DNA from: Escherichia phage outra
Sequence record: MN850645.1
Length of the DNA: 64,000 nt
Direction: 5' to 3' (one strand)
Under the pieces are notes generated by a model that saw only the letters and a program-made list of their open reading frames with translations, did no database searches and was not told the DNA's origin. Shown here in pieces: positions 3,292-49,743 of this stretch (its first letter is position 1; every line of letters starts with the position of its first letter). Made by a program: the position numbers and the translations under genes.

Positions 3292-3771
3292 TTGGATAAA
3301 ATGCTTACTGGCGTAATGGCCTATGATCCTTCTCAAGTAATCCTGTCTTTGGGTGGTTGGGAACCTTGGGGTTTCGCCGCAGATACCAAAATTGTTATTA
3401 ACAAAACTAACGATATCATCAACCCATATTCAGGTACTGATGGTGACGTTTCCTTGGCTCTTAGTCGTAACCGTTTAGGTACGCTAACAATGTCACTGCA
3501 ACGTACTTCCCCAGCAAACGAAGTTCTTGCTGCTTATGCACAAACGATGTATTCTACTCGTCAAGTAGCATTTAGCGTATATCTAGAAGACCCTCGCGGA
3601 TATTATATCAGCACAATTGGTTGGATTCAAAGCCAACCGGACGACACTATTGGTGAAACTATTCAAGAAAACCAATGGGTAATTGGTCTTAAAGATGCAA
3701 GCCTACTTCGTTCTACTGTAGGTGTTGGTGTTAACGCACTTAACTCTATTAGTGCTCTAACTATTCAGTAA
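3292..3771 (+). CDS. tail tube protein
   Basis: 159 aa ORF immediately after the sheath gene; TTG start 7 nt after AAAAGGAGA; followed by a strong rho-independent terminator. Confidence 0.65.
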   Translation: MDKMLTGVMAYDPSQVILSLGGWEPWGFAADTKIVINKTNDIINPYSGTDGDVSLALSRNRLGTLTMSLQRTSPANEVLAAYAQTMYSTRQVAFSVYLEDPRGYYISTIGWIQSQPDDTIGETIQENQWVIGLKDASLLRSTVGVGVNALNSISALTIQ

Positions 3772-4591: not shown

Positions 4592-6571
4592 TTGTTAGAA
4601 ATTAACACTTCCAAGATTAAGAATACAGTAACGTTTACTGTAGATAAAGACAGTTTAAAAAATACTAAAGACGCAATTAAAAACCTTAAAACTTTTACAG
4701 AATCTATTGAACCATCTTTAAATATGACTAAAATGCGTCGTCAGTTTAAAAGTATGGAAGAGTATGCTAAAAGAATAAGGCAGCAAATGTCAGGTCTTGG
4801 CGGCGGTAATCCTCCACCAATCCCACCAACCGGAGGTTCAAGTGGTGGTGGAAAAGGAGGAAGTGGCAGAGGTGGTTCTGGATCTTCTGGAGGACGTAAG
4901 ACACCGGAGGAAAGAGCCGCAGAAGCCGCCGCTAAACGTGCAGCACTTGCTAATATGAAGCAAGACGATTTTAGTTTTAAAGCTATGCCTTTTACAAAAG
5001 CAGACAGTAGAATTCTAGAAAAATCTAAAAAGATTGTAGAAGAAACTGTTGAACTTTATCGTAAAGGCGTGATTACTAGCCAACAAATGAACAATACTTT
5101 GGCTAGACAGTTAGAAGAACTACGCAGATCTCATAGAGAGAAGAATGCACAACTTCTTGATGAAGAGAGAGCTAGACGTAGAATTGCCCGTCTGCAAGAA
5201 GCAGAAGATAAAAGAAGACAGCGTGTTCGAGAAAGAGAAAGAAAGGAGTTCGAACGTCAGCAAAGGAGGGAAAAAGAAGCAAGACAGCGAGATAGACAAC
5301 GTAAGTTATCTGGTGTAGGTAATGCTGCTATTGCTCTTAACCCTGCTATGTTTGGTGCTGCTCTTTTAGGTGCTGGTTTATATCAAGGCATAAGCAAAAT
5401 AGCTGAAAGCATCACAACTGCGGCAGAACGTATTAATATGGTTAGTAAAGGTGGTCAGAACGTACAGGTAAACCCTAATGCAATTTTAACAATGCGTACT
5501 TGGGGTGAGATGAACGGTGTAGACTCTGCCAGCATTATTAAAGCCATTGACAATATTAAAGACGTTCGTGAACGTTTAGGTAATACTGTACTCCACTCTG
5601 AATTTGATGAAAAATCAGGTAAATGGAAAGGTGGAGATAGTGGTATTAATGAAATCATGAACCAATTTGGTTGGTCGAAAGAAGATGTTGCTAAATTCCA
5701 GAACAGACCTTTAGACTTTGTTCAAGCACTTGTTAATGAAGGTCAAAAAAGAGGAATGAACTCCGCGCAAATTGGTCGTTTGATGGAAAACCTTGGTGAT
5801 GACTTAATGCACTACCAACGTATGTTTTTGGATAACGGTAAAGAGTACATGAAAGTCTTGGATATGTTAAAAAATTCAGGAGCCACTCTTAACGATGAAA
5901 ACATCAAAGCAGCACAAGATTTTGTTAAGCTAAGAGCACAAATTAGTGCAGCAGGAGAAGGTTTTACCAATAACTTACTTATAGGATTTATGGATGGTTT
6001 AAAATCTGCACCAGATTTTGCAGAGAATATGAAAACTTTCCAAGAAGCTGCTCGTGGTCTTGGTGAAATGTCTGGTAGTATTGTAAGTAGCCTTGCAAAA
6101 ATTGCGAAATATTTCCTTGATTTTTCAAATAAGGTTGGGCCAAAAAACAATACTAAAGAAGCTGTAAGAGATTATTATAATGGTACGCAGTATGGGTACG
6201 ATGCACAGGTTGGTGGTAATCCTTGGGCTTATTGGCCTATTGGAAGAGATCAACATCTGCCTGAAAATCAACCTTTAGGTAACTTTGATAGTAGTTTCTT
6301 AACTAGTGCCTTAAATCCAAGTGCTTCTAGTATTGGTTACAATAGACCTGATTTAACAGCATCTATGCTAACACCACGCCAAGGTGTTCCAGTACCGTTA
6401 AGTGTAGAGAATACGGTTGTTATCCCAGACAACGCATTCCAGATTAATGTTATTCCAGATGGCTATGGTTTTAGTAATTATCTAGATGCGACAATGAATA
6501 CCAGTTTTAGTAACTTCTCACAAGGTTTAACTCTTCAGTTAAGCAGTGGACAATCTTCTACTGGTGGTTAA
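4592..6571 (+). CDS. tail tape measure protein
   Basis: 659 aa; TTG start 6 nt after GGAGGA; Gly/Ser-rich low-complexity segment, long Arg/Glu-rich coiled coil, hydrophobic central segment; located after the chaperone frameshift pair. Confidence 0.7.
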   Translation: MLEINTSKIKNTVTFTVDKDSLKNTKDAIKNLKTFTESIEPSLNMTKMRRQFKSMEEYAKRIRQQMSGLGGGNPPPIPPTGGSSGGGKGGSGRGGSGSSGGRKTPEERAAEAAAKRAALANMKQDDFSFKAMPFTKADSRILEKSKKIVEETVELYRKGVITSQQMNNTLARQLEELRRSHREKNAQLLDEERARRRIARLQEAEDKRRQRVRERERKEFERQQRREKEARQRDRQRKLSGVGNAAIALNPAMFGAALLGAGLYQGISKIAESITTAAERINMVSKGGQNVQVNPNAILTMRTWGEMNGVDSASIIKAIDNIKDVRERLGNTVLHSEFDEKSGKWKGGDSGINEIMNQFGWSKEDVAKFQNRPLDFVQALVNEGQKRGMNSAQIGRLMENLGDDLMHYQRMFLDNGKEYMKVLDMLKNSGATLNDENIKAAQDFVKLRAQISAAGEGFTNNLLIGFMDGLKSAPDFAENMKTFQEAARGLGEMSGSIVSSLAKIAKYFLDFSNKVGPKNNTKEAVRDYYNGTQYGYDAQVGGNPWAYWPIGRDQHLPENQPLGNFDSSFLTSALNPSASSIGYNRPDLTASMLTPRQGVPVPLSVENTVVIPDNAFQINVIPDGYGFSNYLDATMNTSFSNFSQGLTLQLSSGQSSTGG

Positions 6572-24401: not shown

Positions 24402-26288
24402 ATGTATCCTATTCCTTTATTTATGTCAACAACATCAGCTTCAGTAGTAACAGCTACATCTATAACCACTTCCTCTATTGGCATTGCAATAGTTGGTAGT
24501 AAAAAACAACTGACATATACAGTTACACCCGAAGATGGTGCGTTATTTGATATAGCTTTTTCATCTTCAGATAATACCAAAATGGTTATAGATAATAATG
24601 GTATGATGGAGTTTGTTGCTGAAGGTGGTTTTGATGCAATAATGACAGCTAAAAATAATTTAGGTGCTGTCTTAACTGATCAATCTGGTGGTTATGCTTC
24701 AGAATTAAGTGTGTACACTGAAAGTCTATCGGCTATGGATGTAGGCACTACTCAACAGTTGGTTGCTACAATCAGTCCAGAAGGTGCTAAAGACCTTCCA
24801 GATATGGTAATTACATACACCACAACAGATCCAGAAGTAGCTACTGTAAGCCCTACAGGATTAATAACTGCTCTTAAAGATGGCAATTGCCGTATAGGTT
24901 GTACTGCAACGTATCAAGGAACAGTTGTGGCCTCTGATAGTTCTTATTTAGGTGTTAATGCTATTCCTGTTATTTCTAATGTAACAGCCGTGGCAAACAG
25001 TTATGGAGACGTTCGTGTTGCTTGGGATGTAACTGATCCACTAGACGGTGATACTTATACTGTAGAAGTATTAGATTTAAGTGATAATAGTGTTCAGTGG
25101 ACTACAACAACCACGAATACTTACGCTTACTTTGATATCTCTGACTCTATTCCTCTTTATGGGTTTGCTCCAACATACCTTAAAATTAGCGTTAAGAGCA
25201 CCAAAGCAGCAGCCGTTATCTTTAATAACTCAATAGCTACAGATGATTCGTTCATTAAAGAAGTTATTGTCTTTGCTGGACAAGATAACGTAAATGCACA
25301 CTTTACAGAATTATCTGGTGCAAATAAAGCAGTAATGAGTAGCACAACAACCCGTAATGCATATGCTACGCAACGTGGTTTAGCAAATGCTGAAGTTCTT
25401 CCGTTAAATACAGCTTCTGGATCATCAGCAGCAGATAAATATGCTGACGATAAAGCTGGAACAGGTACACCAGACAACTACTGGTATGATCTGGATAACA
25501 CAGCAGATGGGCCATGCTTAACTAACTTTATCACTAAAGTCACACCTTATGCAAGTAAGGTTAAAGCAATTATTTGGGGACAAGGTGAAAATGATGCTGT
25601 ATCAGCATCTTCGACTGTTGCAGGTAGGTACAGTAACACTACACGTTACCATGATGCTACGATAGCTATCTTTGATAAGATGCGTACAATAGTTCCTGCT
25701 TCTCAAGCAAAAATTGTTTGGCAGATCCTAGGACGTTCTTATTTATATGGTGTAGAAGTTAATGGTGTGGATTGGCAGAAGTACAGAAATGTACAAAGAA
25801 CCATCTCTACAGCACGTGATGATGTTATCATTGGTTCTTGGGTAGATGGTGCTGAACGTTACAGTGGTTATGTTTATGAAGAAGGTATTGATGGTCGTAT
25901 CCATTATATTTCTTCTGTATATCAAACAGCAGCTACAAAACTTGCTAAATCAGCAGCAGACGGTACAGATTTAACATCAACACCACCTGTTTGGGTTGAT
26001 ATGTCTGTTCCAACAGGAGGAGCCGCTGTAAGACAAGCTAACCAAGATGCAATTATTTCTTGGGAACCAGCAGGATATACCAAACATTACTTCCGAAATG
26101 TAAACGTCCTCACAGCAGCAATTCTTACAGAACAAACTCTTGATACTAACACTTACACATTTACTTATGCAGATCAGGTTGAACAATACGGGTTTGCAGC
26201 AGGTACAGCAGTGTTTGATGTTGCACACTATGATGCTGATAATGACGTGTTATCACCTCTTGTCAGATTTACAGTCAATGTTACATAA
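24402..26288 (+). CDS. tail fiber/spike with SGNH/SASA-type carbohydrate esterase domain
   Basis: 628 aa; RBS AAGGAGA; motifs VIVFAGQDNV, IIWGQGENDA and DGRIHY resemble the GQSN / QGExD / His blocks of sialate-O-acetylesterase-type esterases. Confidence 0.6.
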   Translation: MYPIPLFMSTTSASVVTATSITTSSIGIAIVGSKKQLTYTVTPEDGALFDIAFSSSDNTKMVIDNNGMMEFVAEGGFDAIMTAKNNLGAVLTDQSGGYASELSVYTESLSAMDVGTTQQLVATISPEGAKDLPDMVITYTTTDPEVATVSPTGLITALKDGNCRIGCTATYQGTVVASDSSYLGVNAIPVISNVTAVANSYGDVRVAWDVTDPLDGDTYTVEVLDLSDNSVQWTTTTTNTYAYFDISDSIPLYGFAPTYLKISVKSTKAAAVIFNNSIATDDSFIKEVIVFAGQDNVNAHFTELSGANKAVMSSTTTRNAYATQRGLANAEVLPLNTASGSSAADKYADDKAGTGTPDNYWYDLDNTADGPCLTNFITKVTPYASKVKAIIWGQGENDAVSASSTVAGRYSNTTRYHDATIAIFDKMRTIVPASQAKIVWQILGRSYLYGVEVNGVDWQKYRNVQRTISTARDDVIIGSWVDGAERYSGYVYEEGIDGRIHYISSVYQTAATKLAKSAADGTDLTSTPPVWVDMSVPTGGAAVRQANQDAIISWEPAGYTKHYFRNVNVLTAAILTEQTLDTNTYTFTYADQVEQYGFAAGTAVFDVAHYDADNDVLSPLVRFTVNVT

Positions 26289-26291
26289 ACA

Positions 26292-26313
26292 AAAAGGAGC
26301 CAATAGGCTCCTT
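26292..26313. terminator. bidirectional rho-independent terminator between convergent modules
   Basis: Hairpin AAAGGAGCC-AAT-AGGCTCCTTT with T-rich flanks on both strands; lies between the last + gene (ends 26288) and the last - gene (ends 26324). Confidence 0.65.
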
Positions 26314-26323
26314 TTCTTTTATC

Positions 26324-26755
26324 TTAATCAGTGAAAATTACGCTCACATCTTCTTTAGAGAAGAGTTTATGATCTTCACCTTTTGTCTCAAGAGTTTCAT
26401 ACAGGTTAAGAAGTTCTGAAACATCTTTCTCTACTAGTTTCTTCAATGTTGCAATTTTCTGTTTGCGATTTTTAATACGTTCAGCTACAACCTTACGTTG
26501 GTATCCGGCAGTACGATAACCTGAGAAAGTTACACCAGTGAGACTTGCAGTTACAGGATCGTAATGACGTTCAATCTGAAATTTATTAAAAGGTACAGCG
26601 TCATCACGAATAATCTTACCGCCATTACTTACTTGACGAAGACCAGTAACTTGTTCTAGTCGTGCCATAGAAATCTTTGGAGACAGACCAGAGTCCAGGT
26701 TCATACCGTTGTTAATCAGTGCTTTCAGGGTGATTTTGCTGTTCAGTGTACTCAT
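26324..26755 (-). CDS. hypothetical protein co-transcribed downstream of the DNA methyltransferase
   Basis: 143 aa; GGAGGA 9 nt upstream; start lies 44 nt inside the 3' end of the MTase gene; no motif recognised. Confidence 0.4.
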   Translation of the reverse strand: MSTLNSKITLKALINNGMNLDSGLSPKISMARLEQVTGLRQVSNGGKIIRDDAVPFNKFQIERHYDPVTASLTGVTFSGYRTAGYQRKVVAERIKNRKQKIATLKKLVEKDVSELLNLYETLETKGEDHKLFSKEDVSVIFTD

Positions 26756-27443
26756 TTAGTCGTTCCTCCGCTTGCTTAAAAATATTTACATCGGCTTCAC
26801 AGCCTAAGTATTCTCTACCTGTTAAAAGTGCCGCAACTTGTGTTGTTGCACTTCCAGAGAAGAAGTCTAAGACTACATCTCCTTCGTTGGTATGTATATT
26901 AATAAGGTCACAAAACAAAGTCAAGTGTTTTTGTGTCGGATGAAAACGATCTGCTCCTTGATAGATAGGATACTCAAACACACCCTTGTGGTAGGAGGCA
27001 TTGAAGGTTGGCTTAGAACCTTTAACACAAACAATAGCCATCTCTTTAGCGTTACTAAGGTAGTTAACACCACTGTTGATGGGTACAGGGTTTGTTTTAA
27101 TCCATTCAATAGTACGGAACATACGAAAACCAAGCGGTTCAAGGATTTCACGTAGCTCCTGGATCTTCCAGATATCATACCAAACTATGCAAGTACCACC
27201 TTTTCTAAGCACCCTATAGGCTTCTTTGAATACTTCTTTAAAGTAAGGAATATCTACAACATCCCAATCCCCAAAGTTGTAAGATACACGGAATCTATCT
27301 GTATCTTTTCCAGTAGGCTCTCCAGATTGAAAATTTGTGTCACGAGAAATAGCATATGGTGGGTCAGTAAGAATCAAATCTACACTATTGCTTTCGAGGG
27401 TTTGCAGGTAGTTTAACGCGGTGTTGTTTACAAATTCGCTCAT
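26712..27443 (-). CDS. DNA methyltransferase (amino-MTase, beta-class; N6-adenine or N4-cytosine)
   Basis: 243 aa; DPPY (motif IV) near the N-terminus and FFSGSATT (motif I, AdoMet binding) near the C-terminus; RBS GAAGGAG. Confidence 0.8.
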   Translation of the reverse strand: MSEFVNNTALNYLQTLESNSVDLILTDPPYAISRDTNFQSGEPTGKDTDRFRVSYNFGDWDVVDIPYFKEVFKEAYRVLRKGGTCIVWYDIWKIQELREILEPLGFRMFRTIEWIKTNPVPINSGVNYLSNAKEMAIVCVKGSKPTFNASYHKGVFEYPIYQGADRFHPTQKHLTLFCDLINIHTNEGDVVLDFFSGSATTQVAALLTGREYLGCEADVNIFKQAEERLNEYTEQQNHPESTD

Positions 27444-27455
27444 TATATCTCCTTC

Positions 27456-27481
27456 AAAGAAAAGGAGCCGTTAGGCTCCTT
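27456..27481 (-). terminator. rho-independent terminator after the SSB-like gene
   Basis: Hairpin AAGGAGCC-TAAC-GGCTCCTT followed on the minus strand by TTTCTTT; about 90% identical to the hairpin at 26292-26313. Confidence 0.6.
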
Positions 27482-27503
27482 ATATTTACACAATATTTAA
27501 CTA

Positions 27504-28451
27504 TTAGAAACAGTGCAGGAAGTTTCGACCATACTGCAAACCAATAGGAGCAAATGGGATATCATCATCGAAATCTTGAACAACAGGTTCTGGTTCTTTC
27601 GGTGCTGGCTCTTTCTTCTCTACTTTTTTAGTTTCTTTCTTAACTTCTTGTACTGGGGTAGACATTCCACGGATAGCAGCAGCTACTTTATCAGACAAAG
27701 CAAGAACTTCACGAGCAGCTTCAATAATCTCTTCTGCCGTTACAGTTTTACCTGTATGATCACGACAAGCGTTAAGAATTGCGTGTCCAACTGAAGCACC
27801 AAGATCATAGTCAGTCACATCAACGCCACGATCTTTAGCAATTTCTGCTTTCAGAGTAACAGTTGCAGATTGTACCACACCAGCCAAGTCGAAAGCATCA
27901 CCTTTCACACCAGCACGTAGAAGCTCCAGAGCGCCGTTTACAGCGTGTCCTGTTTCAATCCCTACGGTATCACGTTTTTTGTAGTTAGGCTTGCTACCTT
28001 CGTTATTAGATGGCTTATTTCCACCTTTTGAAGAAGATTGTGCTTGCTGAACACCTTCTGTTGAAAGAATAGTGATTTTACCTTTAGAGGAATTGTAGTA
28101 TGTTTTGCCATTCCATTCAGAAGGTTTAACATCCATAGTTAGTTCTACACCTTTTTCGATAGTAACCCACTTGTCACCATCTTTAACTTGCAGGTTTTCA
28201 TGTTCTGGATGCAGTTTAACTTCACCTAGGCTAACCCAAACACCTTTATCATCAGCACTAGCACCTTTCTCTTTAATAAGCAGAGATGCTTTGTGAGTTG
28301 ATTCAATTTTCTTATCTGGCTGACCTGCAACCTTAATATAAGAGACTTTCATTTCATCAAACTTATCCAGTTTGACATATTCAACGATACCTTCAGCCCA
28401 GAATGCTTCTTTTTTAGTACGACGGTCGATTTCAGAATTAATTACTGGCAT
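27504..28451 (-). CDS. single-stranded DNA-binding protein-like
   Basis: 315 aa; beta-rich N-terminal region; Lys/Glu/Pro linker and acidic DFDDDIPF motif (SSB tail signature) 15 aa before a C-terminal Phe; RBS GAGGAG. Confidence 0.55.
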   Translation of the reverse strand: MPVINSEIDRRTKKEAFWAEGIVEYVKLDKFDEMKVSYIKVAGQPDKKIESTHKASLLIKEKGASADDKGVWVSLGEVKLHPEHENLQVKDGDKWVTIEKGVELTMDVKPSEWNGKTYYNSSKGKITILSTEGVQQAQSSSKGGNKPSNNEGSKPNYKKRDTVGIETGHAVNGALELLRAGVKGDAFDLAGVVQSATVTLKAEIAKDRGVDVTDYDLGASVGHAILNACRDHTGKTVTAEEIIEAAREVLALSDKVAAAIRGMSTPVQEVKKETKKVEKKEPAPKEPEPVVQDFDDDIPFAPIGLQYGRNFLHCF

Positions 28452-28909: not shown

Positions 28910-29503
28910 TTAAATCTTAAATTCTTCGTTGTTAAATGAATCCAGTGTACGTACTTCTGGTTCTTTGGGAATGAAAACGTCTTTTACAAAGCGGAACATA
29001 GGGAAACGTTCTGCCATTTTACGGACGTGTGCTTCCTTACCTGTGTATCGGTGATTAATAGTACAAATATTAGTTTTCAGTGCAAATTCAAAGTCTGGAT
29101 GATATACATAATTTTGACCATCCCAGTAACACAGGCAAATAGCCACATCAAAGTTCCATACGATTTCACTGCGTACACCCTCTTCCATGATCATAAAGTT
29201 AAACTTAAGATCTTTATAGTATGCTTCAAATACCCATTTCAAATGTGGTAGTTCGGCATAAGTGTGTTCTGTTTGCTTAGTAAGTTGTTTAACATTACGT
29301 GCACCAACACCCAACATCAAAAATTTCTCTACTAGTACGAGTGTATTGTGGTTAGGCATACGCAAGTAAATGTCAATATCTTGCGCAGGTTTCTCTAATC
29401 GCCAATCACGTACAGCGCCGCCAGCTACAATTGCAAACGGATCTACCAGTTGGCACATACGTAATACTTCTAAAGCTCGTACTTTTTGATCTTCAATATT
29501 CAT
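28910..29503 (-). CDS. nucleotidyltransferase, CCA-adding / poly(A) polymerase head-domain type (Pol-beta superfamily)
   Basis: IVAGGAVRDWRL...DIDIYL matches the GGAVRD-DxD catalytic signature of class II CCA/PAP enzymes; only ~197 aa. Start revised to the ATG at 29503 (AGGAGA 5 nt upstream); the track's start at 29524 is a GTG within that RBS. Confidence 0.55.
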   Translation of the reverse strand: MNIEDQKVRALEVLRMCQLVDPFAIVAGGAVRDWRLEKPAQDIDIYLRMPNHNTLVLVEKFLMLGVGARNVKQLTKQTEHTYAELPHLKWVFEAYYKDLKFNFMIMEEGVRSEIVWNFDVAICLCYWDGQNYVYHPDFEFALKTNICTINHRYTGKEAHVRKMAERFPMFRFVKDVFIPKEPEVRTLDSFNNEEFKI

Positions 29504-29537
29504 ATTTTCTCCTATCGTGTCCACTCTTTGTGTTGTT

Positions 29538-29660
29538 CTACATACTCAAGCATTTCATTATATAGTGCTTTTTCATATAATGCGGCGTTAGTTTCTTACT
29601 ACCAGGTAGCGTACTCTCGCCTTCCAAATCATTAATACCTTCACCATATACGGTAAGCAT
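29538..29660 (-). CDS. possible small ORF (40 aa) in an apparent intergenic gap
   Basis: ATG at 29660 with AAGGAG 5 nt upstream, TAG at 29540-29538; below the ORF-track size cut-off. Confidence 0.25.
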   Translation of the reverse strand: MLTVYGEGINDLEGESTLPGSKKLTPHYMKKHYIMKCLSM

Positions 29661-29687
29661 AAAAACTCCTTTAAAATCAAAGAGATG

Positions 29688-32267
29688 TCAGTGACAAGAC
29701 GCCCATGAGTTACCAACATCGTAACCAGCAGTGAGAGGTACATTAAGATTGTAATACTCACCAGCTTTATTAACAGCGATAGATGCTAATTCTCCAGCAC
29801 GACTGTAGGCTGTAAACCAACCACCTTTCGGAGATTCATGTACGTTAGCCCAAATCTTGCCAGTACGTTTCTCTTCCTCTTCTTTCCAGGCATTAACTTT
29901 ATCCAAACATTCTTTATCAATTTTCTTTTGTTCTTCTGGATCATCAACTTGAGTCCAACCTAAAGATTCTTTAGAGAACCATTTAAAATGCACCAGATCA
30001 CGAGTTACTTCAAGCTGTGCTTCATCGTGATATGCAATCATTTGTTGAACGAATGACTTATTTTTCCAGTCATCAACAAAAAAGTCAACAGCTAATCCTT
30101 CTTCTTCGATAAGATCGTCGTAGATAACCATTGCTCTTTTTGCACAAATAACACCACCACTCTGGAACAGAGAGTTAAGTATTGCGTGTGCAGATCGTGT
30201 AGGTACTTTCCTACCATCAATACCCAGAATGTATTTCTTACCTGTTTTAACCCAAAAGTCATGCAGACGTTCTTTAAGAAGCGCAAGAGGTTTTGCAGCT
30301 TCCCAGAAAGCATCGTATACAAGCTGTCCTGTATACATATCACTACCTATAGTTTTTGCTACTTTTGCAGCTTGAGCACCATAAGTAATACCATACTTAA
30401 CAGATTTAGCAGGGCTTCGTTCAAACTTACGACCAATAGTGTCAGAAATACGTCGAGCCATCATTGTATGAACGTCATTAGGTTTTTCCAATAACAGAGC
30501 ATTACAATATTCGTGTGGTTCCTGCTCGTACCGCCAACAGTAGTGTGATTCTATTTTTGCCTCAAGAGAATCAAAGTCATAACCAATTTGGAAGTATTTT
30601 GGAACTTCTACACCAAATAAGTTACGCATTTCATATCCGTACAGAGATGTTACACGTGGGATATTTGCTACTAGCCTATGTTTCATACGAGACGTAGCTG
30701 CATCACACGTTGCAGCAGGAGTTGGTATACGACCATCAGCCCTTACTGCTGCCAGATAACCTTTATCGTAATCCTCTTCATCTTCTTCCCAATCAGCACC
30801 ACCCCCTAGAATAGAGTTCCTACGGTGTTTATACGTAAGATACTGCACAATCTGCGTAGCATAAGGAAACTTTTCACCTAGTGCTTCCAAGTTAGGACAA
30901 ATATCTTTCTCTTGCCCTTTTGTAAAGGAAGGGTTCGTAAGCACTTTAACACCACGACCTTTAGCTTTAGCAATACGATCTCTTAGTTTCCATTCCAAAG
31001 TTTCTGGTGTGCACTCCAGATGATCACATCTGTCCTGGCAGAAGTTAGATGCTAATGTTTGATCAACATAGTCACGAATAGCTTTCTCCATTTGTGCTTC
31101 ATCTTTCTTAATCTTAGTGCCAGATTTAAGAGTGATATCTTTATCTTTATATTCAGATGGACTCCAACCTAAACCAACTAACCAGTTTTTAATATGTGTA
31201 GTGTCGTCTAAAGTAGCAGGTACTGTAGGATCACAAATAGGTTCTTCTGCTGGAATAGGTAGTTTAAACTCTTTACCTAATGCAAATAGCCACCAACCAT
31301 CTTCTTTTTGTACAAGTTCACCAGAATGTTTCTCTGCAAACTTTATCATGTTACTTGAAGGTTCACCATTCTTTTTAAACTGTAGTTTAGGTGGAATGAA
31401 TGATTTCAAATAACCTTTAGTAGCAGGTTTAGGAGGTAGCACAGGTTCTGCCTCTAAACGACATGCTTCCATTCGAGCATCCAGATCACGAATATTATCT
31501 TCTGCTTGTTTCATATTGAAAGCAAAGCCACGGTGCTCTTGACGTGTAATAATATCAGCTACACGTTGTTCTAAGTTAAATGGTTCAGACCACTTGTTAT
31601 AATCACCCCACTCTTCCATCAAATAACGGAACACTGCGGTGTTAGCTTTGTTATCGTAAATACAGTAATACAGCATATCTGCTGCAAATGTTTTAAATCT
31701 TTCAGTTTCAGGAATGTTTTTTCTAAAATCAATTTTAACATCCCCTCCAGCTTTCTTAGATAACTCTGCCAGACTATGACCACCGAAGCGATCAGGGTTT
31801 AGTGTCTTACTTAAGATCATAGTATCACAAATTTCAATGTTACTATTACCCCAAGTATTGTACTTAATACTGTAGTTGAGTTTAAAAAATAATTTAATTG
31901 CCAGTAAGTCAAAGTTAATGATGTTATGTCCAACTACTTTGGTAATTTTATAGTTTGAATTACCTTTAAATTTACCTGTTCCATTTACAAAATCAGGAAA
32001 ATCTTTAAGAGGGAAATGGGTATATTCTAAATGCTCATATTCCTCCAGTCGGTATTCATACTTTCCGTCAGTCTCAACATACGGACGACCATCGAAAAGA
32101 TATTTATCACCATCATGGAAAGCAATAATCTCTCCAGTATCATGACTTTCGCACACAATACAGTGCATTGCAAAACTATCTTTTAAACGATATGGACTTG
32201 CCAAGTAATCTACACTTTCGTCATTAAGCAAGTTGTTACTTTCAATGTCGAAAGTAAAAGCTCCCAT
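29688..32267 (-). CDS. DNA polymerase, family A, with 3'-5' exonuclease domain
   Basis: 859 aa; N-terminal FTFDIESNNL (Exo I DxE); motif A DFDSLEAKI, motif B RSPAKSVKYGITYG, motif C AYHDEAQLEV; RBS AAGGAGGG. Confidence 0.85.
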   Translation of the reverse strand: MGAFTFDIESNNLLNDESVDYLASPYRLKDSFAMHCIVCESHDTGEIIAFHDGDKYLFDGRPYVETDGKYEYRLEEYEHLEYTHFPLKDFPDFVNGTGKFKGNSNYKITKVVGHNIINFDLLAIKLFFKLNYSIKYNTWGNSNIEICDTMILSKTLNPDRFGGHSLAELSKKAGGDVKIDFRKNIPETERFKTFAADMLYYCIYDNKANTAVFRYLMEEWGDYNKWSEPFNLEQRVADIITRQEHRGFAFNMKQAEDNIRDLDARMEACRLEAEPVLPPKPATKGYLKSFIPPKLQFKKNGEPSSNMIKFAEKHSGELVQKEDGWWLFALGKEFKLPIPAEEPICDPTVPATLDDTTHIKNWLVGLGWSPSEYKDKDITLKSGTKIKKDEAQMEKAIRDYVDQTLASNFCQDRCDHLECTPETLEWKLRDRIAKAKGRGVKVLTNPSFTKGQEKDICPNLEALGEKFPYATQIVQYLTYKHRRNSILGGGADWEEDEEDYDKGYLAAVRADGRIPTPAATCDAATSRMKHRLVANIPRVTSLYGYEMRNLFGVEVPKYFQIGYDFDSLEAKIESHYCWRYEQEPHEYCNALLLEKPNDVHTMMARRISDTIGRKFERSPAKSVKYGITYGAQAAKVAKTIGSDMYTGQLVYDAFWEAAKPLALLKERLHDFWVKTGKKYILGIDGRKVPTRSAHAILNSLFQSGGVICAKRAMVIYDDLIEEEGLAVDFFVDDWKNKSFVQQMIAYHDEAQLEVTRDLVHFKWFSKESLGWTQVDDPEEQKKIDKECLDKVNAWKEEEEKRTGKIWANVHESPKGGWFTAYSRAGELASIAVNKAGEYYNLNVPLTAGYDVGNSWASCH

Positions 32268-49711: not shown

Positions 49712-49743
49712 CATACAAATAAAGGAGGCTTTCGCCTCCTTTT
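49712..49743 (-). terminator. rho-independent terminator after the AAA+ ATPase gene
   Basis: Hairpin AAAGGAGGC-GAAA-GCCTCCTTT followed on the minus strand by ATTTGTAT. Confidence 0.55.

Follow-up and report, generated by a model that had tools for sequence, protein, structure and literature searches.

The 64,000-nucleotide stretch of the Escherichia phage outra genome analysed here (MN850645.1; hereafter the window) comes from a phi92-like phage of the genus Justusliebigvirus (Stephanstirmvirinae). Our subject is a two-gene cassette lying where the plus-strand tail genes, which end at 26288, converge on the minus-strand replication genes. The cassette consists of a DNA methyltransferase (MTase) gene and, overlapping it, a gene for a small protein that we call the partner; their phi92 orthologues are annotated as a methyltransferase (gp155) and as hypothetical (gp154). 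A first-pass annotation of the bare sequence had reported a beta-class MTase, a 143-residue partner, a 44-nt overlap between them and two flanking hairpins at the junction of the structural and replication modules, and all of these are found where it placed them (Table 1). From 25800 to 28000 the window is 100% identical to the Escherichia phages ESCO8 and ESCO32, and 90 to 99% identical to 53 further Justusliebigvirus records.

The MTase itself is of a familiar kind. It scores 106.9 bits against PF01555 (cut-off 26.7) over the entire profile (positions 1-221 of 221), with DPPY at residues 27-30 and DFFSGSATT at 193-201 (FSGSATT at 195-201). Motif IV before motif I is the defining order of the beta class, and since DPPY (IV) precedes FxGSxTT (I), the class assigned earlier is sound. 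The closest solved structure is 5hek, which is M1.HpyAVI/DpnA-like. A GAGG/GGAG specificity like that of M1.HpyAVI, tied to the GGAG in the hairpin stems, was entertained and dropped for want of supporting evidence.

Table 1. Features at and around the cassette junction, in window coordinates
Feature	Position	Strand	Remarks
Tail protein, 628 aa, Big_2 domains	24402..26288	+	convergent neighbour downstream of the cassette
Hairpin 1, predicted bidirectional intrinsic terminator	26292..26315	.	stem AAAAGGAGCC, loop AATA, stem GGCTCCTTTT; between tail gene end (26288) and partner gene end (26324)
Partner, 143 aa, phi92 gp154 orthologue	26324..26755	-	phrog_20244 (function unknown); predicted N-terminal winged-helix domain, long C-terminal helix
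MTase/partner overlap, 44 nt	26712..26755	-	different frames; variable MTase C-terminal tail over partner N-terminal helix
Ribosome-binding site of partner, GGAGG	26765..26769	-	within the MTase gene, at its 3′ end; ATG follows after 9 nt; same site annotated in the phi92 record
Beta-class type II DNA amino-methyltransferase, 243 aa, phi92 gp155 orthologue	26712..27443	-	
Ribosome-binding site of MTase, AAGGAG	27449..27454	-	read from sequence; annotated in the phi92 record
Hairpin 2, predicted intrinsic terminator or attenuator	27460..27481	-	after the single-stranded-DNA-binding (SSB)-like gene; reads AAGGAGCC TAAC GGCTCCTT then TTTCTTT
SSB-like replication-module protein, 315 aa, phrog_4477	27504..28451	-	neighbour upstream of the cassette; tail-module-adjacent in Phapecoctavirus

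Kinship of the partner with NlaIII/IceA1 endonucleases

Searches with the partner sequence against Pfam, NCBIfam, PADLOC and the PDB returned no match. The first-pass annotation, which saw no recognisable function in the protein, overlooked a kinship with restriction endonucleases. A profile search of 1.84 billion representative proteins delineated a partner family of about 30 clusters, mostly 125 to 143 residues long, with the conserved motifs LGLDxxTGxS, SNGxxIIRxD and FxGY. Run on 5 close sequences, AlphaFold2 gave an unusable model (pLDDT 54); with a 20-sequence alignment the pLDDT was 90.4, and the model comprises an N-terminal domain of helices and a beta-hairpin, a single helix over residues 83-125 and a short C-terminal helix. 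The modelled fold is a winged helix, which agrees with the first-pass guess that the partner might bind DNA. The protein has no Cys residue and no HNH motif. Its ratio of nonsynonymous to synonymous substitution (dN/dS) is about 0.1-0.2, with dS saturated, and the partner should therefore be regarded as a functional protein and not as a decaying remnant.

The kinship is seen at 7 IMG/VR loci where the MTase is 47 to 55% identical to that of the window and the overlapping downstream open reading frame (ORF) encodes 177 to 248 residues. The N-terminal region of these ORFs matches the partner profile, Cys and His abound in their C-terminal domain (CRxxD...IECDHKDGRY...KRxHCxxC...CxGCYWYDP), and they are members of PF05315, ICEA (E 1e-25 to 1e-32), the NlaIII/IceA1 family of His-Me (HNH) type II endonucleases (PMC5714182). 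When the partner family was compared with ICEA proteins by hhalign, the two aligned at 95.8% probability (E 8e-9, about 18% identity), with partner residues 18-101 falling on the segment that precedes the HNH domain. In the reverse direction, a hidden Markov model (HMM) built from IceA N-terminal domains alone found 10 hits among 4,511 six-frame ORFs, drawn from the window phage, Phapecoctavirus phage ASO2A, Pseudoalteromonas phage J2-1 and related loci, and all 10 were partner ORFs. A Foldseek search of BFVD, which holds predicted viral protein structures, placed an ICEA1-annotated protein at rank 5.

Gene order points the same way. The MTase profile scores 276 to 417 bits on MTases encoded directly upstream of IceA-like genes (about 20 bacterial and 7 phage loci), and among species-representative bacterial genomes an MTase of the same family lies directly upstream of the IceA-like gene, on the same strand, at about 20 of 80 loci. 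In the window, too, the MTase gene comes first and the second gene follows on the same strand, overlapping it; spacing between the two ranges from a 44-nt overlap to a 9-nt gap at phage loci and from a 13-nt overlap to a gap of about 130 nt at bacterial ones. Among relatives of the cassette an overlap of 4 to 44 nt is kept, across which the C-terminal tail of the MTase varies and the N-terminal helix of the partner is conserved. As a feature of the module, the overlap suggests that translation of the partner is coupled to that of the MTase.

It could be objected that the resemblance to IceA is convergent or spurious, the partner being simply a small DNA-binding protein of phages, without kinship to the endonucleases, whose gene is often found near those of MTases. 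The low identity in the hhalign alignment and the lack of a direct Pfam match lend this some force. However, the forward and reverse HMM searches and hhalign are concordant, the reverse test produced 0 false positives, and the partner takes the position and orientation of the endonuclease gene beside orthologous MTases. We regard the objection as very unlikely to be correct.

By sequence comparison, then, the partner appears to be a hitherto unrecognised nuclease-less derivative of a restriction endonuclease, homologous to its N-terminal domain. The best explanation of the cassette, to which we assign a probability of roughly 0.7, is that it is a domesticated restriction-modification module, an NlaIII/IceA1-type operon whose endonuclease lost its nuclease and was kept as a DNA-binding protein beside the MTase. 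The ancestor would have been a type II operon in which the endonuclease gene followed that of the MTase; the endonuclease gene would have retained its N-terminal winged-helix DNA-recognition domain and lost the C-terminal HNH nuclease, and the long helix that took its place probably serves for dimerisation. Today the pair forms the last two genes of the minus-strand replication cluster. In a neighbor-joining (NJ) tree, the 10 MTases linked to a partner group together as a single clade, set among MTases linked to endonucleases, the tree being unbootstrapped and midpoint-rooted.

CATG sites and the possible role of the partner

IceA1 recognises CATG and is encoded beside the gene for a CATG-specific MTase, hpyIM (PMC13340068, PMC4202330). 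Of the palindromic tetranucleotides, CATG shows the strongest depletion in the window, with an observed-to-expected ratio (O/E) of 0.38; in ESCO8 it is the second most depleted (O/E 0.55), and in Phapecoctavirus ASO2A the ratio is 0.86 (50 kb). Pooled over loci, with scatter between them, the ratio is 0.38 for partner-type and 0.45 for endonuclease-type phage loci. For GTAC the contrast is the opposite of that for CATG: it is strongly depleted in the Phapecoctavirus phages ASO2A and nieznany (O/E 0.31-0.37) and not in ESCO8 (0.66-0.81). A literature search found no published methylome for Justusliebigvirus. As a separate observation, IMG/VR contigs in which a relative of the MTase is followed by a second MTase gene (L067-L092) nearly lack GATC (O/E 0.06).

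The partner follows a PF01555 MTase in three settings: at the ends of replication modules, in nucleotide-metabolism clusters and in a T7-like context. A shorter partner subclade (125-130 aa) is instead preceded, with an overlap of 4 to 8 nt, by an unrelated MTase with an NPPF motif (phrog_799, E 1e-28 to 1e-32). These NPPF MTases, of about 176 to 190 residues (L010, 3802-4338; L190, 783-1355; L192, 196-726), always overlap a short partner homologue; they gave no Pfam hit above threshold, and a profile search found no PDB relative. At every partner locus with a readable upstream gene, an MTase lies directly upstream, with the exception of Pseudoalteromonas phage J2-1 (MF988720). The J2-1 homologue occupies record coordinates 112975-113388, and no MTase of either partner-linked family is found in that genome; the gene upstream of the homologue (L007, 4100-4792) was tested as a hidden MTase and is not one. 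The 142,204 bp of J2-1 contain 0 CATG, against 348 expected. CCGG is absent from it as well (0, against 95 expected). H101, the nearest sequenced relative of J2-1, has no partner homologue and a CATG O/E of 0.61 (50 kb sampled).

Taken with the domesticated-module explanation, these patterns allow a tentative proposal about function. The MTase would produce C(m6A)TG on phage DNA, and the partner, dimerised through its long helix, would bind the same site when unmethylated, without cleaving it. Its target would be unmethylated DNA, most likely that of the host, while the phage would be protected by having its own sites few and methylated. A bolder reading, which we think rather more apt to be wrong than right, is that members of the gp154 family are restriction enzymes without the cut, in which a CATG recognition domain has been exapted as a dimeric reader of unmethylated sites and turned on host DNA, self-escape being provided by an MTase coupled to the partner and belonging to one or other of two unrelated families or, in J2-1, by removal of every CATG. 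Possible host-directed uses include interference with the nucleoid, shut-off of host functions and recruitment of a nuclease in trans.

Two other roles have to be weighed. The partner might be a regulator or helper of methylation, either a C-protein-like transcription factor or, in the manner of SeqA, a protein that recognises phage sites lacking methylation on one or both strands and that times gene expression or recruits the MTase. A winged-helix fold and tight translational coupling to the MTase would both suit such a role, and a link between variants of iceA1 and the level of hpyIM transcription has been reported in Helicobacter pylori (PMC4202330, PMC13340068). Against a C protein, which is a small XRE-type HTH protein encoded upstream of the endonuclease gene, the partner has no XRE or HTH match in Pfam, its gene is downstream of the MTase gene, and its homology is to the endonuclease itself. 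More generally, J2-1 keeps the partner without a cognate MTase and without CATG, so that, if the specificity is indeed for CATG, the protein there cannot act on the phage's own sites; and the fact that its MTase neighbours belong to two unrelated families is more in keeping with a target site in common than with a specific partnership between proteins. We consider a regulatory role unlikely. The second role is that of a shield or decoy against host restriction at CATG, the partner covering these sites, pending their methylation, as phage DNA enters or replicates. Descent from the recognition domain of a CATG enzyme and co-expression with the MTase are compatible with this, and CATG depletion indicates selection by restriction at that site. 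However, the gene stands at the end of the replication operon, behind a terminator, and the protein would therefore be unavailable at DNA entry; moreover, a shield would be of no use in J2-1. We judge it a poor prospect.

Several points weigh against the domesticated-module explanation and the CATG specificity attached to it. When 29 members of the partner family were scanned singly against Pfam, none matched PF05315, and by that curated criterion the partner is therefore not a member. The homology is drawn from profile methods, at the low identity given above, and from gene order. Of the traits of an NlaIII/IceA1-type system, the second gene lacks the HNH/His-Me domain with its Cys/His zinc ligands as well as a score above the PF05315 threshold. 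The direction of evolution, which would be loss of the HNH domain and not gain, is read from the NJ tree, with its lack of bootstrapping and its midpoint root, and from the distribution among lineages. CATG specificity is taken from gene context and site depletion, and PF05315 members could differ in specificity; host restriction systems could by themselves account for the depletion, some partner loci are not poor in CATG (O/E 0.85 at L021 and 1.05 at L188), and J2-1 stands alone as an example.

The usual account of orphan phage MTases treats them as simple means of anti-restriction, and small neighbours such as gp154 stay hypothetical. On the domesticated-module explanation gp154 gains a testable identity, as a conserved descendant of the recognition half of an NlaIII/IceA1-type endonuclease that is coupled to an MTase across several phage lineages. 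If the partner does read unmethylated CATG, virulent phages would be using the logic of restriction-modification without cleavage, and the depletion of CATG, total in J2-1, would be accounted for. By comparison, the locus as first described was ordinary, with two routine terminators around an MTase of a known type.

Terminators, boundaries and age of the cassette

The two hairpins read AAAAGGAGCC-AATA-GGCTCCTT at 26292-26313 and AAAAGGAGCC-GTTA-GGCTCCTT at 27460-27481, identical at 20 of 22 positions; in phi92, Paula, ALITA and alia the loop of the first is ATTA, which brings the match to 21 of 22. The pattern AAGGAGCCnnnnGGCTCCTT occurs exactly twice in the window, with one further copy at 49722 that carries 2 mismatches (0 expected, from 100 shuffles), and exactly twice in the 148,860-bp ESCO8 genome. 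A third related terminator lies at 49721-49742, AAAGGAGGC-GAAA-GCCTCCTTT, whose stem shows compensatory changes relative to the cassette hairpins. Both cassette hairpins have the G+C-rich stem, short loop and T-run of Rho-independent terminators in a sequence scan, fold stably (-13.6 to -18.1 kcal/mol) and are already annotated as terminators in the Paula record, so that the terminator-like character noted at first stands. Hairpin 1 is positive in the terminator scan on both strands (-16.3 kcal/mol on one and -18.1 on the other; z = -5.5).

The first-pass annotation read this pair as the mark of a moron-like insertion, a horizontally acquired anti-restriction cassette, and gave a specificity or DNA-binding subunit as one possibility for the partner. 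In the form weighed here, the acquisition is recent, the duplicated hairpins mark its boundaries and the partner is a specificity subunit of the MTase. There is something to be said for this. The cassette is absent from the same junction in the sister genus Phapecoctavirus, where, in ASO2A, the SSB-like gene (recorded in ESCO32 as a single-stranded-DNA-binding protein), a single bidirectional terminator and the tail gene are contiguous; the two genes are thus an accessory unit, whose neighbours on either side lie next to each other in related phages. As direct repeats, the hairpins are confined to these two sites in the genome, and the nearest relatives of the MTase in sequenced phages outside this clade are only 30 to 38% identical.

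The repeats, however, are poor witnesses to an insertion. A census of ESCO8 counted 24 terminator-like sites falling into a few stem families: AAAGGGGC-tetraloop-GCCCCTTT occurs 5 times, 3 of them with the same loop, AAACCCGC 3 times, and AAGCCCC and GGGCGC 4 times each. Terminators with identical stems are thus common in this genome. Furthermore, in divergent relatives with the cassette at the same junction the hairpins at the two positions differ from each other, and where the gene pair occurs in other lineages of phages, hairpins or terminators do not flank it. For these reasons the near-identity is weak evidence of insertion, and to judge from sequence the hairpins are ordinary Rho-independent terminators, not insertion scars. 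The Phapecoctavirus junction terminator, ATAAAAGAAAAAGGGAACC-TTTGCG-GGTTCCCTTTT, is orthologous to hairpin 1 and has the flank ATAAAAGAAAAGG in common with it, which makes hairpin 1 the ancestral terminator of this junction, serving the replication and tail modules in both directions. Hairpin 2 would end or attenuate transcription after the SSB-like gene, and the cassette would therefore probably be expressed at a low level, by read-through.

Nor do other properties suggest a moron. Only 16 nt separate the end of hairpin 2 from the MTase start codon, a scan of the minus strand from 27443 to 27560, limited to the sigma-70 consensus, found no promoter, and G+C does not set the cassette apart, being 0.37-0.41 both within it and in the flanking sequence. 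At loci of other lineages, sigma-70-like promoters do lie directly upstream of the MTase (L022, about 4940-5000; L026, about 3440-3500), as TTGACA-N17-CATAAT and TTGACA-N17-TATTCT; the spacer in L026 is a G+C-rich stem-loop like the promoter-early stem-loops of T4.

As to age, the cassette is present in all 55 Justusliebigvirus records and, in uncultured relatives with a partner of only 55 to 66% identity, occupies that junction as well, which contradicts a recent acquisition. MTases 61 to 71% identical to that of the window occur in phage contigs of about 120 to 135 kb, within nucleotide-metabolism clusters (thymidylate synthase, DHFR, RNR, PhoH), where an overlapping partner homologue follows in 8 of 8 cases, and the pair recurs in a further lineage in the T7-like context. 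The cassette is accessory, old and mobile. As for a specificity subunit, orthologous MTases operate beside independent endonucleases, so they need none. In the BASEL study phi92-like phages were exceptionally susceptible to the restriction-modification systems tested (PMC8594841), which argues against a broad anti-restriction role. With the repeat-as-scar and recent-acquisition parts largely refuted, we think it improbable that the moron interpretation as a whole is right.

Some variation among genomes at and near this junction may be recorded here. In many genomes the tail gene beyond hairpin 1 is a different allele from that at 24402..26288, and homology stops exactly at the hairpin, which would therefore act as a recombination boundary; megablast homology with about half of the Justusliebigvirus genomes starts exactly there (window 26277-26291). 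Endonuclease or HNH-type genes are found at or beside the cassette junction in nieznany (L008, 5905-6399) and in L003 (about 270-740), the latter being an HNH ORF that has the SSB-like gene on one side and, on the other, an upstream hairpin with the same sequence as that of the window. Within the replication module, ESCO32 has an extra gene of about 195 residues (L001, 9713-10300) between the nucleotidyltransferase and DNA polymerase genes relative to the window (about 29500-30100). The polymerase ORF of the window has 859 residues (29688-32267), and ESCO32 annotates a longer one, an indel difference in that module.

Relation to known systems

Arbiol and colleagues are said to have described, in 2010, mobile regulatory cassettes of T4-type phages in which promoter-early stem-loops (PeSL) flank shuffled genes. 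The window cassette is similar in having repeated stem-loops at its boundaries and a recombination breakpoint between tail alleles at hairpin 1. However, neither hairpin contains a promoter, the combination of promoter and stem-loop being found only upstream of the cassette in L026 and L022, and cassettes of other lineages have no such repeats; a PeSL-like mobile element was accordingly rejected. Phage morons provide another partial likeness, in that the cassette lies between genes that are adjacent in a sister genus and is followed by a terminator. Unlike morons, it has neither its own promoter nor a compositional anomaly, the phage is virulent, and the upstream hairpin terminates the preceding gene.

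The remaining comparisons are with CATG systems. With the frameshifted iceA1 alleles of H. pylori, the MTase is retained although cleavage by the cognate endonuclease has been lost (PMC13340068), and this resembles the cassette, with its MTase kept beside a nuclease-less endonuclease relative. Here, in contrast, the partner is under purifying selection, is conserved in distant phages and has been rebuilt with a new C-terminal helix. In H. pylori, moreover, iceA1 is upstream of the MTase gene, and hpyIM may belong to a different MTase subfamily. In chlorovirus PBCV-1, M.CviAII (A251R) and R.CviAII (A252R) are encoded by adjacent genes and act at CATG (PMC7248222), which sets a precedent for a virus carrying such a module; R.CviAII differs in being an active nuclease. 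The closest relation is to the NlaIII/IceA1-M.HpyI systems themselves. The partner departs from them in having no HNH/His-Me domain and no Cys, in falling below the Pfam threshold and in its long C-terminal helix. Yet in phages and bacteria alike, genes for MTases of the same family stand immediately before those for PF05315 endonucleases, often overlapping them, as the MTase gene here does that of the partner; the N-terminal domain is common to the partner and the endonucleases, and the genome that carries the cassette is depleted of CATG.

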